A program made the position numbers and the translations under genes. Shown piece after piece: positions 14,673 to 18,665 of a stretch of 29,068 nucleotides of DNA; position 1 is the stretch's first letter; each line of letters begins with the position of its first letter. The stretch lies in the IMG/VR virus record IMGVR_UViG_3300030390_000234; one strand, given 5' to 3'. The DNA is from a virus. The notes below the pieces were generated by a model. That model was not told the origin of the DNA. It did not search any database and worked only from the letters and a program-made list of their open reading frames with translations.

Positions 14673-14876
14673 ATGTCTATTCCGAAAGCAAAAAAAGGTG
14701 AAAGTACACAATCATTTATGTACAGATGTTTGTCAGATTCACATATGATAAAAGTATATAAAAACAAAACACAAAGAGTTGCAGTATGCTCACTAGAACT
14801 AAAAATAAGAGATGAAAAAGTTAAAAATCAAAAAGCTAAAGCGAAATCCAAACAATCCAAGAGTAATAAAGGATAG
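14673..14876 (+). CDS. Hypothetical protein (67 aa) with a Lys-rich tail
   Basis: ATG lies 2 nt after the VRR-NUC stop. Carries ESTQSFMYRCLSD...QRVAVCSLE. The 3' 65 nt overlap the ParB-like gene. Confidence 0.45.
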   Translation: MSIPKAKKGESTQSFMYRCLSDSHMIKVYKNKTQRVAVCSLELKIRDEKVKNQKAKAKSKQSKSNKG

Positions 14877-15390
14877 TAAATTTGAGAAACTAAAAGCTAG
14901 TATAAAGCAGTTTCCTAAAATGATGGATTTAAGACCTATTGTATTAGATGATTCTAATGTAGTAATAGGTGGAAATATGAGATTAAAAGCTTGTACAGAT
15001 ATAGGCTGGACAGAAGTACCAACGATTGTATTTTCAAAAAAAGACTGGGAAGAAAACGAAATGCATTTAGATGTAGATTTAAGAAAATCATATGCTGATA
15101 GATGTAATGAGTTCATAATAAAAGATAATGCTGGATTTGGAGAATGGGATTGGGATATACTTGCTAATTCATATGAAGAAAAAGATTTAGACTTCTGGGG
15201 TTTAGATGTTTGGCAATCAGAAGATATTGATTACGAACCTACACTCAATCCAGATACAGAATACTCTGATGTTACTAAAGAAGAAATAGAAAAAAAGGCT
15301 AAGCAGTTAGCAGAACAAATGGTACAAGAACTTAAAAACACAGAAGTTATTTGTCCAAATTGTCAACACGAATTTAATGTACAATTATAA
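14812..15390 (+). CDS. ParB/Srx N-terminal-domain protein (192 aa) with no methyltransferase domain and a C-terminal CxxC knuckle
   Basis: KIKKLKRNPNNPRVIKDSKFEKLKASIKQF...RPIVLDDSNVVIGGNMRLKACTDIGWTEVP is a ParB-N pattern. Also EWDWDILAN...DLDFWGLD, and VICPNCQHEF at the end. Confidence 0.7.
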   Translation: MKKLKIKKLKRNPNNPRVIKDSKFEKLKASIKQFPKMMDLRPIVLDDSNVVIGGNMRLKACTDIGWTEVPTIVFSKKDWEENEMHLDVDLRKSYADRCNEFIIKDNAGFGEWDWDILANSYEEKDLDFWGLDVWQSEDIDYEPTLNPDTEYSDVTKEEIEKKAKQLAEQMVQELKNTEVICPNCQHEFNVQL

Positions 15391-15671
15391 TGACTAAGGA
15401 ACAAGTAGATTTAATGCTCAGAAAGATGAATTGGGTAAAGTGTAAAAGCTATGTAAACGACCCTCATCATTATTCTCGCATAATGGATATTAATACAGAT
15501 GAAGTCGCAAAGGCTTGGAAAGGAGTTGTAACACATATCTGGGAAAATAGAAAAATGGAATACTGGAAGTATGGAAAGTCGTTTCCTTATTACAGAGCCA
15601 ATGGTTATAAGTACTGGGTTATGGACAAAACAATAAATAGCACAGACTTAATTAATAGAGCAAAGATTTGA
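15390..15671 (+). CDS. Hypothetical protein (93 aa), Trp/Tyr-rich
   Basis: TAATG coupling to the ParB-N gene and TTGA coupling to the next gene. No catalytic motif recognised. Confidence 0.55.
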   Translation: MTKEQVDLMLRKMNWVKCKSYVNDPHHYSRIMDINTDEVAKAWKGVVTHIWENRKMEYWKYGKSFPYYRANGYKYWVMDKTINSTDLINRAKI

Positions 15672-16438: not shown

Positions 16439-16803
16439 TTGAACACAAACATCTAATAGTTAAAGGCTTTTATCAAGGTACAATGACTAAAACAAGGATA
16501 AGACATTTTTTAAATGATTTAATATTCCTTTTAGATATGAAGCTAATGGAACTTCCTAATAACCCAAACATAGGTTATGTTGGTGGAGAAGGCTCTGGGC
16601 ATACTGGAGTGGCTATTATAACTACATCACATATTGTATTGCATTGTTGGGAAAAAACTATGGAGTACCAATTAGATGTATATTCTTGTAAAAAGTTTGA
16701 CCCAGCAACTATAATAGCTTATTGTTCTGATGAGAGATTTTATAAAGTTTCAGCAAGATTCTTTGATAGAAATTATGATATAATTACAGATGAAGATATA
16801 TAG
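16435..16803 (+). CDS. AdoMetDC-fold (SpeD-like) pyruvoyl-dependent decarboxylase homologue, 122 aa
   Basis: HKHLIVKGFY...GSGHTGVAIITTSHIVLHCWEKTMEYQLDVYSCKKFDP aligns with the class-1 SpeD motifs (G)VSGVVxIxESHLTIHTWPE...IDLFTCG..DP. The Ser, His and Cys are conserved. Confidence 0.7.
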   Translation: MIEHKHLIVKGFYQGTMTKTRIRHFLNDLIFLLDMKLMELPNNPNIGYVGGEGSGHTGVAIITTSHIVLHCWEKTMEYQLDVYSCKKFDPATIIAYCSDERFYKVSARFFDRNYDIITDEDI

Positions 16804-18010
16804 CAAAAAGAATGTAGTAGAAGCTGGACTGGAAAGAATAGAAAGAGTGTTTCACGAATTTGAAGAGGTTATTGTTGGTTTCTCTGGTGGTAAAGATTCA
16901 ACAGTTACTTTGCATTTAGCATTAGATGTAGCAAAGAAGCTAAACAGATTACCACTAAAAGTAATGTGGGTAGACCAAGAAGCTGAGTGGCAATCTACTT
17001 GCGACTATGTACAGAGTGTATTTGACAGAGAAGATGTAGAACCTATCTGGTTTCAAATGCCTATGAAATGGAATAACAATATGTCTAACAAGACTAAGCA
17101 TATTACTATTTGGGAGGAGGGTAAAGAATGGATAAGAGAAAAGTCTCCTATATCTATACAAGAAAACAGATACTTAAATGTAGGATTTAATGAATTGTTT
17201 GGCAAGATATTAGAAGTAGACTTTGCAGACAAAAAGACTTGCTATTTATCTGGTGTGAGAACAGAGGAATCTCCTAAACGATTTGTCGCTCTAACTACAA
17301 GCGTTACATATCAAGATATTACTTGGGCAAAGAAATTAAAAAAGGATTTACATTATACATTTTATCCTATTTATGACTGGAGTTATACAGATGTTTGGAA
17401 ATACATTAATGCTGGTAAACTAAACTACAATACAATATATGATGAATTATATCGCAAAGGTGTAGGTCTAAATCAAATGAGAGTATCAAGTCTACATCAC
17501 GAAACATCTTTAAAGGCACTTCTACTTGTACAAGAATTAGAACCTAAGACTTGGGTAAAAATGGCTAAACGACACGATGGTATAAATACTATTAAGCATC
17601 TAAAGGGCGATGCCTATAAGTGTCCTAAGAACTTCCCTTATATGTTTGAAAGCTGGAAAGAGTATGCTCTACATTTAGCAGACAAATTAATAGACAATGA
17701 TAAAAACAAGAAGTCTTTTAATAGGCAAGTAGAAAATCATAAGTTTTTTGACAATGAGTTTTCTGGTAAAGATTATTGGAGAGTAATGATTAATACAATA
17801 CTATCTTTAGATTTTGATTATACAAAATTAAGCAACTATACTATGAGTGCAAATGCAGATACATTTAGAAGGTATCACAGAAACCCTAAAGGTGCTGGGA
17901 AAGATAAATTTGTATGGAAACCAGTAATGCTCAAAAATACCAGATACTTAACTACTGAACAGAAAATAGAAATAACTGAACACTTTAGAAATGAACGACT
18001 TAAAAAATAG
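16790..18010 (+). CDS. PAPS-reductase family PP-loop ATPase with a long C-terminal extension (IbrA-like), 406 aa
   Basis: VIVGFSGGKDSTVTLHLA (PP-loop SGGxDS), YLSGVRTEESPKR, YPIYDWSYTDVWKYI, and a ~170-aa C-terminal domain as in IbrA/DUF3440-type proteins (memory-based). Confidence 0.75.
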   Translation: MKIYSKKNVVEAGLERIERVFHEFEEVIVGFSGGKDSTVTLHLALDVAKKLNRLPLKVMWVDQEAEWQSTCDYVQSVFDREDVEPIWFQMPMKWNNNMSNKTKHITIWEEGKEWIREKSPISIQENRYLNVGFNELFGKILEVDFADKKTCYLSGVRTEESPKRFVALTTSVTYQDITWAKKLKKDLHYTFYPIYDWSYTDVWKYINAGKLNYNTIYDELYRKGVGLNQMRVSSLHHETSLKALLLVQELEPKTWVKMAKRHDGINTIKHLKGDAYKCPKNFPYMFESWKEYALHLADKLIDNDKNKKSFNRQVENHKFFDNEFSGKDYWRVMINTILSLDFDYTKLSNYTMSANADTFRRYHRNPKGAGKDKFVWKPVMLKNTRYLTTEQKIEITEHFRNERLKK

Positions 18011-18665
18011 CATTAAGATAGCTTTTAACAAATCAGAAGATAAAGCTGAGTTTGTAAATGAATTAAGAAGCTGGATGCATAAACATATATCATTAGTTCC
18101 ACAACCAATAGATAATGTGCAATGGGTTCCAGTAGATAAAGTACAACCAAATGACTACAACCCTAATTCAGTTGCTAAGGTGGAAATGGGGCTTCTGTAC
18201 AAGAGTATAAAGCACGATGGCTATACTCAGCCTATTGTAACTATTTACGATGCAGAGATAGACAAATATGTAATAGTAGATGGCTTCCACAGATTTTTTA
18301 CTTGTCAAAGAAACAAGGATATAATGGAAAGGAATAAAGGTATGTTGCCAATAGTAGTTATAGATAAAGATATAAACGATAGAATGGCATCTACTGTTAG
18401 GCATAATAGAGCAAGAGGAGAACACTCAGTAGAGGGAATGTCTAATATGGTATTTGATATGCTTGAAAATGGTTGGAGTGAAGAACGCATCTGTAATCAT
18501 TTAGGTATGGAGCCAGAAGAAATATTAAAGCTGAAACACATAACTGGATTCAGTAAGCTATTTGATAATGTAGAATATAAAAAGTCTTGGGAAACTATGC
18601 AACAACTCAAAGCAAAAAAGGCTTTCATAAGACCTAATCAATCAAATCACAATGAACAAAACTGA
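17991..18665 (+). CDS. ParB/Srx-like protein of IbrB type, 224 aa
   Basis: VPVDKVQPNDYNPNSV...GYTQPIVTIYDAEIDKYVIVDGFHRFFTC...RMASTVRHNRARGEHS. It overlaps the PP-loop gene by 20 nt and terS by 14 nt. Confidence 0.7.
   Translation: MNDLKNSIKIAFNKSEDKAEFVNELRSWMHKHISLVPQPIDNVQWVPVDKVQPNDYNPNSVAKVEMGLLYKSIKHDGYTQPIVTIYDAEIDKYVIVDGFHRFFTCQRNKDIMERNKGMLPIVVIDKDINDRMASTVRHNRARGEHSVEGMSNMVFDMLENGWSEERICNHLGMEPEEILKLKHITGFSKLFDNVEYKKSWETMQQLKAKKAFIRPNQSNHNEQN

Follow-up and report, generated by a model that had tools for sequence, protein, structure and literature searches.

Among the phage hypermodification systems built on 5mYOX enzymes there is a case in which a ParB protein is needed for the enzyme to act on double-stranded DNA (dsDNA), and glycosyltransferases (GTs), ParB proteins and terminases are the top co-occurring genes of these systems (PMC13229309). 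GT-A enzymes which carry R...DDD motifs glycosylate phage DNA (bioRxiv 10.1101/2023.12.21.572611), fusions of ParB with N6/N4 methyltransferases (MTases) are enriched in phages (PMC12704722), and a member of the S-adenosylmethionine decarboxylase (AdoMetDC) family from pelagiphage HTVC201P is a pyruvoyl arginine decarboxylase (PMC9992855). The protein pair IbrA and IbrB (IbrAB) activates the expression of prophage eib genes in Escherichia coli (Sandt et al., 2002, as relayed in PMC7649339). Here we analyze IMG/VR virus record IMGVR_UViG_3300030390_000234, a stretch of 29,068 nucleotides (nt; hereafter the window), and within it a block of six genes, p1 to p6, which leads into the genes for the small and large terminase subunits, terS and terL. 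Comparison with relatives reveals a fixed core, comprising a p1-type ParB, IbrA (p5) and IbrB (p6) beside terS and terL, and a variable payload between the ParB and IbrA, which p2 accompanies either as a separate gene or as a fused domain. Judged from its sequence, we consider it about an even prospect that the block is a variant of a ParB-guided, combinatorial, post-replicative cassette which modifies the phage's own DNA around packaging.

Relatives were gathered as contigs bearing the p3 family, together with IMG/VR loci found via IbrA and p4, and all of their open reading frames (ORFs) were clustered; gene counts refer to the 17 distinct loci with full upstream coverage. IbrB is present in 16 of these loci, the p1-type ParB ('ParB1') in 14, p2 in 12, and N6/N4 MTases and SpeD-like (p4-type) genes in 10 each, followed by a family designated c8 (8 loci), p3-type GTs (3) and GNAT proteins (2). 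Among marine phage contigs of ~29-37 kb, the common order is ParB1-[SpeD-like]-p2-variable slot-[SpeD-like or GNAT]-IbrA-IbrB-(second ParB1)-terS-terL. A Tara phage (L012-L015) is collinear with the window, with identities of 52% (p1), 58% (p2), 50% (p4), 63% (IbrA), 75% (IbrB) and 63% (terS), and in L012 the GT position is filled by a 211-amino acid (aa) N6-adenine/N4-cytosine DNA MTase with DPPW and FxGxG motifs. The presence of a DNA MTase in the GT slot of relatives indicates DNA as the substrate. Elsewhere this slot holds c8 (~200 aa, LQDDV...PSLVQH), alone or with a shorter MTase; TylF/Methyltransf_24 and FkbM MTases; a radical-SAM protein; or GNAT alone. We regard c8 as GT-like no more than tentatively: although its DxD, DD and H positions line up with those of the p3 GT, the profile-profile comparison of the two families scored poorly (probability 1.6%, E 0.03), and a PDB profile search returned only a mimivirus glycosyltransferase (E 0.043). 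One c8-like protein, gp155 of Microbacterium phage Hendrix, carries the annotation 'glucosyltransferase'. Directly upstream of IbrA, two relatives (L032:4024-4527 and L077:1426-1929) also encode members of a 167-aa family, which shows an HxD...H pattern and is weakly similar (E 0.002) to a 2-oxoglutarate (2OG)-Fe(II) oxygenase-like protein beside a p3-type GT (L068:271-942); this family could be the missing hydroxylase in those variants.

Homologues of p1, p2, the slot enzyme, IbrA and IbrB co-occur in dozens of contigs, at identities down to ~25-40% and in rearranged orders, so the conserved linkage on which an earlier, preliminary description of this DNA had staked its proposal of a modification system does recur. 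As judged from the proximity of p3 to IbrA, from cultured phages of unrelated hosts and from the p2 fusions, all described below, this linkage exceeds what inherited synteny would provide. That description, made from the nucleotide sequence and its translations, had set out the same six ORFs, and our ORF check places all of them at its coordinates, on the + strand. Its assignments likewise stand in light of the profile and structure searches that follow: p1 as a ParB/Srx N-domain protein without a fused MTase, p2 as a 93-aa protein of no known family, p3 as a GT-A enzyme, p4 as a pyruvoyl enzyme of AdoMetDC fold, p5 as a PP-loop ATPase with an IbrA-type extension, and p6 as an IbrB-type ParB.

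The small protein p2 (15390-15671, + strand, 93 aa) has no match in Pfam, PHROG, NCBIfam or PADLOC. An AF2 model (pLDDT 88) predicts a compact alpha/beta domain, for which a fold search against the PDB found nothing significant (best E 0.4), and we therefore assign it no fold. A profile search of 1.84 billion cluster representatives nevertheless recovered 761 representatives of p2 homologues at E<=1e-3, most of which are stand-alone proteins of ~90-130 aa. Among 36 long homologues, p2 is fused to a class-I MTase in 14, to GNAT in four, to AdoMet_dc in one (P0135, SpeD::p2) and to ParB1 in one (P0140); further p2-MTase fusions are found in Hendrix gp156 and in L068. The enzyme classes fused to p2 are thus those which fill the payload slot. 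The homologues P0047, P0055 and P0106 include proteins with p2 domains in tandem pairs and a protein of 632 aa with 11 matched stretches, so the domain can evidently be repeated, to judge from these matches. No description of this domain was found in the searchable literature, and by the searches made here p2 is a new domain.

The occupant of the slot in the window, p3 (15668-16438, + strand, 256 aa, with a TTG start), lies outside the curated GT families by sequence. It has no Pfam match, its match to TIGR04440 is sub-threshold (E 7e-4; 19.5 bits vs a cut-off of 70), and only two of its homologues carry PF00535. The GT-A assignment is instead carried by structure: an AlphaFold model (pLDDT 91) has exclusively GT-A/GT2 proteins among its top 50 Foldseek matches in the PDB (best E 5e-8) and BFVD (best E 2.6e-8), where a TET-associated GT ranks only 26 in BFVD. 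Residues R13, D91-D92-D93 (DxD) and H195 are invariant among 14 sequences of the family, and D170-(N/D)-x-L-W may match the third motif of the phage DNA glycosyltransferases (R...DDD...EDY/F). Only 15 clusters among 5.8 billion proteins make up the p3 family, and an IMG/VR scan with the single p3 protein gave no confirmed relative; relatives there were reached through IbrA and SpeD instead. No informative context places a p3-family gene more than three genes away from IbrA, and this proximity persists through seven gene orders, identities of 29-57% and two distant host phyla, including gut-type contigs and a Clostridia metagenome-assembled genome (MAG). These orders are p2-GT-SpeD-IbrA; SpeD-p2-GT-IbrA; IbrA-IbrB-ParB-GT; p2-IbrA-IbrB-GT; IbrA-GT-IbrB-ParB, which is found in the Clostridia MAG (L073) and places the GT between IbrA and IbrB; GT-c8-MTase-IbrA; and 2OG-MTase-p2::MTase-GT, which is cut off by the contig end. 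Two irregular copies were also noted. In a relative whose GT is 83% identical to p3 (L070:67-851), a frameshift splits the GT into ORFs of 90 and 163 aa, with SpeD, IbrA, IbrB and terL intact, which may reflect payload decay or an assembly error. In the IMG/VR locus L019 (2854-4788) the GT and IbrA frames appear merged into one 644-aa ORF, perhaps through a genuine fusion, perhaps through an error in sequencing.

The core comprises two different ParB proteins. The first, p1 (14812-15390, + strand, 192 aa), matches Pfam ParB_N (E 8.6e-7) and phrog_620 (2.8e-23), and aligns with the ParB part of phage ParB-MTases (phrog_498, 7.8e-23; PADLOC MTase_II, at residues 12-165). It covers only positions 35-183 of the 633 in phrog_498, that is, the ParB part and not the MTase domain. 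Across 27 family members N15, R17, G54, R57, A60, C181, P182 and C184 are conserved, and p1 retains both the P-motif arginine of ParB proteins (GxxRxxA) and a C-terminal CPxC. This single CPxC pair (15352-15363; residues 181-184) follows an acidic helix throughout the family, and one Cys pair per chain suggests zinc-mediated dimerization of a zinc-hook-like kind, as opposed to a complete zinc knuckle. ParB1 adjoins IbrA in 14 of the 17 fully covered loci, and also in phages Hendrix, Wheelbite, RHph_I4 and vB_BceS-M2. The second, p6 (17991-18665, + strand, 224 aa), matches phrog_2159 (5.4e-74) and has very strongly conserved DGFHR and RHNRARGEH motifs. An IbrB hidden Markov model matches Hendrix gp1 at 1e-77 and, at 1e-58, the protein of E. 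coli phage PhiR5_2 that is annotated as IbrB, as well as proteins of Flavobacterium phages FCL-2 and 1H and of Obutu, Wheelbite, RHph_I4 and vB_BceS-M2; present in 16 of the 17 loci, IbrB is the constant partner of IbrA. A canonical ParABS partition ParB was considered and rejected for both proteins (TIGR00180, 18.5 bits for p1 and 21.8 for p6, vs a cut-off of 58.45). The Pfam scan of window ORFs of at least 90 aa, to which statements on absent gene families hereafter refer, found no ParA, and among repeats near the cassette none was identified as a parS-like ParB site, the only one to turn up being an upstream, promoter-like intergenic repeat.

The other core component, p5 (16790-18010, + strand, 406 aa), scores above the cut-offs for both PAPS_reduct (PF01507, 72.2 bits vs 22.5; 6.8e-20) and DUF3440 (PF11922, 29.8 bits vs 25; 6e-7), matches phrog_2302 at 3.4e-79, and contains the SGGKDS motif. 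We aligned 31 IbrA sequences, from marine phages to phages of E. coli, Mycobacterium and Bacillus. Conserved positions are SGGKDS, D62, E64, G155, R157, E160, S161, R164, D196 and W197, and this retention of the catalytic PP-loop residues makes an enzymatic role for IbrA likely. No cysteine is conserved, there being no Cys column above 65% among the 31 sequences; IbrA is therefore neither a CysH-type reductase, in which the catalytic cysteine lies in a C-terminal ECGLH-type motif, nor a DndC-type Fe-S enzyme. Scores against the corresponding families agree, at 29.9 bits vs 165 (TIGR00434) and 24.5 vs 254 (TIGR02057) for CysH-type PAPS/APS reductases, and 34.6 vs 290.4 (TIGR03183) for DndC, and the window ORFs include neither a desulfurase nor DndD/E. 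The same superfamily holds ATP pyrophosphatases and adenylyltransferases, such as CysD and FAD synthetase, and an activity of one of these kinds is the predicted option that remains. IbrA homologues fall into at least 1430 clusters, the top 120 of which share this architecture, and no informative domain fusion was found among them. Wherever examined, as in the 16 of 17 fully covered loci with IbrB, IbrA is paired with a ParB protein, usually beside the terminase. Membership of this pair names p5 and p6 without explaining them; in the searchable literature we found no description of a biochemical function for IbrAB, or of the cassette as a unit.

Between p3 and p5 lies p4 (16435-16803, + strand, 122 aa), a class-1b AdoMetDC-fold pyruvoyl decarboxylase which matches AdoMet_dc (PF02675) at 42.9 bits vs a cut-off of 25. 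Its Ser65 aligns with the self-processing serine of the Thermotoga maritima enzyme and other AdoMetDC chains, and S65 (pyruvoyl), H66, H70 and C85 are invariant in 15 sequences. It falls well below the cut-off for true SpeD (TIGR03330, 30.5 bits vs 75.65), and in its 'TTSH' motif the residue before the Ser is Thr instead of the usual Glu, which is also the case for the 'ETSH' of the HTVC201P arginine decarboxylase (PMC9992855). The substrate may be AdoMet, arginine or ornithine, each of which is a candidate. The preliminary description had listed the decarboxylase as a part of the pathway. This does not hold, because the SpeD-like family is distributed independently in other phages, where it is a polyamine enzyme, which makes p4 a lineage-specific recruit from outside the core; in pelagiphage, for example, the SpeD-like gene adjoins ribonucleotide reductase (RNR) and replication genes. 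Even so, the cassettes hold two divergent SpeD subtypes, the 'TTSH' type of the window and a canonical 'MESH' type, at two positions, which suggests recruitment and retention rather than chance.

The core of p1-type ParB, IbrA and IbrB beside the terminase extends from marine phages to cultured phages of Microbacterium, Mycobacterium, Arthrobacter, Bacillus and Rhizobium. In Microbacterium phage Hendrix the right end of the record reads c8, the c8-like 'glucosyltransferase', p2::MTase, GNAT and IbrA, and the left end IbrB, ParB1, ParB1, a terS-like gene and terL. The cassette is thereby split over 93352-97753 and 1-4307 of the linear record NC_047977 (L062/L063), the two ends of which are contiguous because the genome is circularly permuted; gp4 of this phage is annotated 'Rnase E' yet occupies the small-terminase position. 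Mycobacteriophage Obutu has the order ParB-IbrA-IbrB-terL, Arthrobacter phage Wheelbite ParB-IbrA-IbrB-MTase-terS-terL, and both Bacillus phage vB_BceS-M2 and Rhizobium phage RHph_I4 ParB(-MTase)-IbrA-IbrB; the terminase adjoins in these cultured phages where one is annotated. The impression given in the preliminary description, that the combination of genes looks new, is thus mistaken for the core, which has already been deposited beside the terminase, for example in Hendrix, with its genes annotated singly. What we report is a widespread mix-and-match cassette, the component genes of which are individually deposited and annotated in many cultured phages, and the rare feature of the window phage is its payload of a GT plus a decarboxylase.

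The first 99 nt of the window (1-99) are identical to the last 99 (28970-29068), which denotes a circular assembly and a complete phage genome of 28,969 bp. This marine phage genome has ~31% G+C and is coded almost entirely on the + strand. From p1 through terL successive genes overlap by 1, 4, 4, 14, 20, 14 and 14 nt, and direct reading of the sequence confirmed the TAATG, TTGA and ATGA junctions reported previously. Such tight or overlapping junctions, with coding on one strand, are the norm across the whole genome, and the fusion of the block with the packaging genes is therefore not special to it. No terminator-like site was found on the + strand between 12.5 and 21.5 kb, and the nearest promoter-like element is an intergenic repeat, GTAAAWWWTATTTRCTATATTT, which occurs at 9377-9398, 10085-10106 and 13253-13274 (+ strand; three copies vs 0.09 expected by chance). 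Because of these two observations, the six genes are probably on one transcript with the packaging genes, inside a longer unit which likely starts further upstream, at ~13.26 kb, with the repeat copy at 13253. Expression as one unit with the packaging machinery, as initially proposed, is thus probable as regards a shared transcript, but the coupling is unspecial and the unit would begin upstream of the block. The copies of GTAAAWWWTATTTRCTATATTT sit just 5' of gene starts, with a weaker copy near 11237, and the repeat is a candidate promoter which we take to resemble the early or middle promoters of Bacteroidota-type phages. A scan for sigma-70 promoters yielded fewer matches than shuffled sequence and was uninformative.

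Between the repeat copy at 13253 and the cassette lie several small genes and then, directly upstream of p1, genes for an HNH endonuclease (14076-14339, + strand; Pfam HNH, 1e-6) and a VRR-NUC nuclease (14260-14670, + strand; VRR_NUC, 9e-9), the ORFs of which overlap by 80 nt. Both families (clusters c27 and c19) also lie just upstream of ParB1 in relatives L012 and L016, and these nucleases may belong to the periphery of the cassette. Downstream of p6, terS (18652-18996, + strand) is identified by phrog_4044 (1.5e-7), phrog_309 (5e-7) and helix-turn-helix (HTH) matches, and terL (18983-20299, + strand) by Terminase_3, Terminase_6N and Terminase_3C as well as phrog_2 (6e-29). The window TerL is 48% identical to those of Flavobacterium phage 11b and Cellulophaga phage phi10:1, matches which suggest a marine Flavobacteriia host. 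None of the cassette families was found in these two phages, the closest in TerL among cultured phages, and the cassette is therefore dispensable for this terminase lineage. A megablast search of the block against 50,697 phage records returned no match. Directly after terL, at 20289-20834, a 181-aa protein with weak sigma-70 region 2/4 and antiterminator-Q-like matches (cluster c17, also present in relatives) may be a phage-encoded late transcription factor. The portal gene (5980-7950) is remote from the terminase genes (18983-20299), an unusual order for a small tailed phage; between terL and the block of protease, other structural and portal genes lie ~9.7 kb of the circle (roughly 20.3-29 kb, continuing over 1-0.5 kb).

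We infer a DNA target for the cassette because N6/N4 DNA MTases are the commonest slot enzymes; because DNA MTase fusions contain a ParB moiety homologous to p1; because a thymine dioxygenase has been shown to need a phage ParB for its action on dsDNA, GT, ParB and terminase genes being the most frequent neighbors of such enzymes (PMC13229309); and because GT-A enzymes of the R...DDD type glycosylate phage DNA and ParB-MTase fusions are enriched in phages. Under the proposed mechanism, the ParB-fold proteins would serve as NTP-switched DNA clamps or activators which deliver enzymes onto double-stranded phage DNA, and p2 would be the adaptor which links this ParB core to the slot enzyme. Through adenylylation, IbrA would spend ATP on activating a group carried by DNA or by a donor molecule; the decarboxylase might supply or trim an amine, and the GT could transfer a sugar from a nucleoside diphosphate sugar. 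The benefit to the phage would be escape from restriction and other DNA-targeting defenses, in an arms race which would drive payload swapping. Any specific chemistry is much less likely than DNA modification in general. The DNA or nucleotide modification system first proposed for this block thus gains partial support from the linkage, the p2 fusions and the DNA MTase in the slot, but neither its novelty as a whole nor the decarboxylase as a core part is supported.

Several observations weigh against a DNA-modifying cassette. All of the support for it is comparative, and the marine-clade loci all come from related phages, so that part of their synteny is inherited. Neither a TET/JBP enzyme nor a thymidylate-synthase-like hydroxymethylase or a kinase is encoded in the window, and no recognized enzyme of this genome could form hmC, hmU or another hydroxyl-bearing base, which leaves the GT without a known DNA acceptor, unless IbrAB creates it. 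More broadly, no Pfam match to TET/JBP, thymidylate-synthase-type, DpdA/QueC, DndA/D/E or MTase families was found in the scanned ORFs, in agreement with the absence of hallmark modification genes remarked upon in the preliminary description. Payloads other than DNA MTases (GT, GNAT and FkbM/TylF MTases) are also typical of sugar or protein modification; SpeD-like genes occur in 17 other phage loci without IbrA and ParB, and a close relative of p4 is a free arginine decarboxylase (PMC9992855); and many IbrAB loci, such as those of E. coli phage PhiR5_2 and Obutu, have no payload enzyme. Finally, eib activation is the only experimental report on IbrAB, insofar as the work of Sandt et al. (2002) is relayed in PMC7649339. 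A tentative variant of the proposal, which we hold to be well short of even, is that IbrA and IbrB are the priming enzymes of an unrecognized ATP-dependent route of post-replicative DNA hypermodification, in which the ParBs would load the system onto DNA, IbrA would adenylylate a base or the backbone, and the payload would elaborate the product, here with an amine and a sugar, with p2 as universal adaptor.

Explanations which dispense with a DNA-modifying cassette must account for the same observations. The region might be a mosaic hotspot of recombination, lying between early genes and the terminase, where unrelated accessory genes (a ParB with an anti-restriction transferase, a polyamine gene in p4, and IbrAB) share a transcript and not a pathway. 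The highly variable payload, the overlapping junctions usual across the window genome, and the lack of the whole region in 11b and phi10:1, the closest in TerL, would all fit such a hotspot, as would the SpeD-like genes without IbrA or ParB which in pelagiphages and other contigs lie by replication and RNR genes and encode arginine or ornithine decarboxylases. We nonetheless think it unlikely, given the fusions of p2 to MTase, GNAT, AdoMetDC and ParB1 domains, the proximity of the p3 family to IbrA in all informative contexts (seven orders, two distant host phyla), the separate positions which two divergent SpeD subtypes take up within one and the same cassette, and an actinophage in which IbrA is surrounded by enzymes of these classes. 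Rather less probable still is that IbrA, IbrB and the p1 ParB are regulators or packaging accessories, acting in late transcription or marking the packaging start, with the payload as separate anti-restriction cargo. E. coli IbrAB does activate prophage eib genes (Sandt et al., 2002, in the account given by PMC7649339), ParB relatives such as KorB regulate transcription (PMC13229309), and IbrAB constantly adjoins terS and terL, to the point that IbrB of Obutu occupies the terS position; yet a complete set of catalytic PP-loop and substrate-binding residues is maintained in 31 diverse IbrA sequences, a separate terS with an HTH is present, the closest terminase lineages function without the module, and the GT can lie between IbrA and IbrB (L073).

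A non-DNA target would require the enzymes to act on a virion or packaging protein, through glycosylation, acetylation or methylation, or on a nucleotide or polyamine pool involved in DNA condensation. Sugars and proteins are indeed common substrates of GT-A enzymes, GNAT proteins and FkbM/TylF-type MTases, polyamine precursors are products of the decarboxylase family, the block is probably transcribed together with the packaging genes, and a ParB fold may amount to no more than an NTP-binding or kinase module (PMC12704722). We regard such a target as improbable, as the payload found most often is an N6/N4 DNA MTase bearing DPPW/DPPY and FxGxG motifs, the ParB part of DNA MTase fusions is a homologue of p1, and the neighbors are nucleases (HNH and VRR-NUC) and the terminase. 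Least credible, to the point of being hardly worth entertaining, is the usual reading of such genes as auxiliary metabolic genes (AMGs), whereby p5 would be a CysH-type PAPS reductase which boosts host sulfur assimilation. PF01507 and phrog_2302 do carry the PAPS reductase label, and phage cysH, including a clade with the extra DUF3440, is treated as a sulfur AMG (bioRxiv 10.1101/2021.01.05.425418; PMC12323421); against this, no Cys is conserved in the 31 IbrA sequences, all CysH/CysD NCBIfam scores are far under their cut-offs (e.g., 29.9 vs 165 for TIGR00434), and IbrA has a ParB partner wherever examined (IbrB in 16 of 17 loci).

The phage 'PAPS reductase', that is IbrA, is among the most frequently reported viral auxiliary genes, and is usually read in terms of sulfur metabolism. 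If the IbrAB-priming route is true, thousands of phage 'CysH/PAPS reductase' genes would be reassigned to DNA chemistry, away from sulfur metabolism. Should the cassette prove to modify DNA, its combinatorial modifications and its ParB-guided delivery of enzymes would constitute a new family, with relevance to anti-restriction biology and to enzymatic DNA-labeling tools. As the cassette is present in cultured, easily grown phages, including Hendrix, Flavobacterium phages and cluster B mycobacteriophages, the question is directly testable, and the long-standing puzzle of IbrAB and the phage 'PAPS reductase' becomes a concrete hypothesis which can be put to the test in cultured phages.

Set against the described systems, the block shares parts with each of several. 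The window pair p5/p6 is alike to IbrA/IbrB in its PAPS_reduct and DUF3440 domains, in a ParB/Srx partner with DGFHR and RHNRARG motifs, and in the adjacency of its genes, here overlapping by 20 nt, as in E. coli phage PhiR5_2 and phages of Flavobacterium, Mycobacterium, Arthrobacter and Rhizobium; it differs in being part of a larger cassette, to which a GT, a decarboxylase, the p2 domain and another ParB also belong. Phage AdoMetDC/SpeD proteins which neofunctionalized to arginine or ornithine decarboxylases (PMC9992855; PMC10407285) are similar to p4 in length (122 aa) and class-1b fold, and the HTVC201P enzyme also in its processing Ser-His, its catalytic Cys and the Thr in place of Glu before the Ser. 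However, the identity is only 35%, and p4 is wedged between a GT and IbrA with overlapping frames, whereas the characterized phage decarboxylases lie among replication and RNR genes; a sister subtype of p4 is known, moreover, from a fusion with the p2 domain (P0135). Dnd and BREX type 4 systems likewise combine a PAPS-reductase-family ATPase (DndC/BrxP) with, in DndB, a ParB-fold partner, and p5 has weak matches to BrxP (1.5e-12) and DndC (1.7e-10), but the window has no cysteine desulfurase or DndD/E, and IbrA lacks the conserved Fe-S cysteines.

The ParB-N6/N4 MTase fusions (PF02195 + PF01555; PMC12704722) resemble the block in their ParB part, which p1 matches (phrog_498 and PADLOC MTase_II), and in the stand-alone N6/N4 MTase which follows p1-p2 in relatives, and differ in that the window has a GT in place of the MTase, and a small p2 gene between ParB and enzyme. 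The defining features of Dnd, CysH, ParABS partition and 5mYOX-based cassettes were each looked for and found to be missing from the block; for the last of these, neither PF12851 nor another 2OG-oxygenase was matched in the scanned ORFs. The window likewise has no C5-MTase or thymidylate-synthase homologue, and only few of its relatives (L032, L068 and L077) carry a 2OG-oxygenase-like gene. It is nevertheless the 5mYOX (TET/JBP-like) hypermodification cassettes (PMC13229309; bioRxiv 10.1101/2023.12.21.572611; PMC8256090) which the block most resembles in organization: those cassettes combine ParB activators with GT-A/GT-B glycosyltransferases, and both kinds share a protein of ParB fold, a conserved R...DDD in the GT-A enzyme, accessory transferases which vary (O-/N-methyltransferases and GNAT) and an often adjacent terminase, whereas in the cassette described here the constant enzyme is IbrA.

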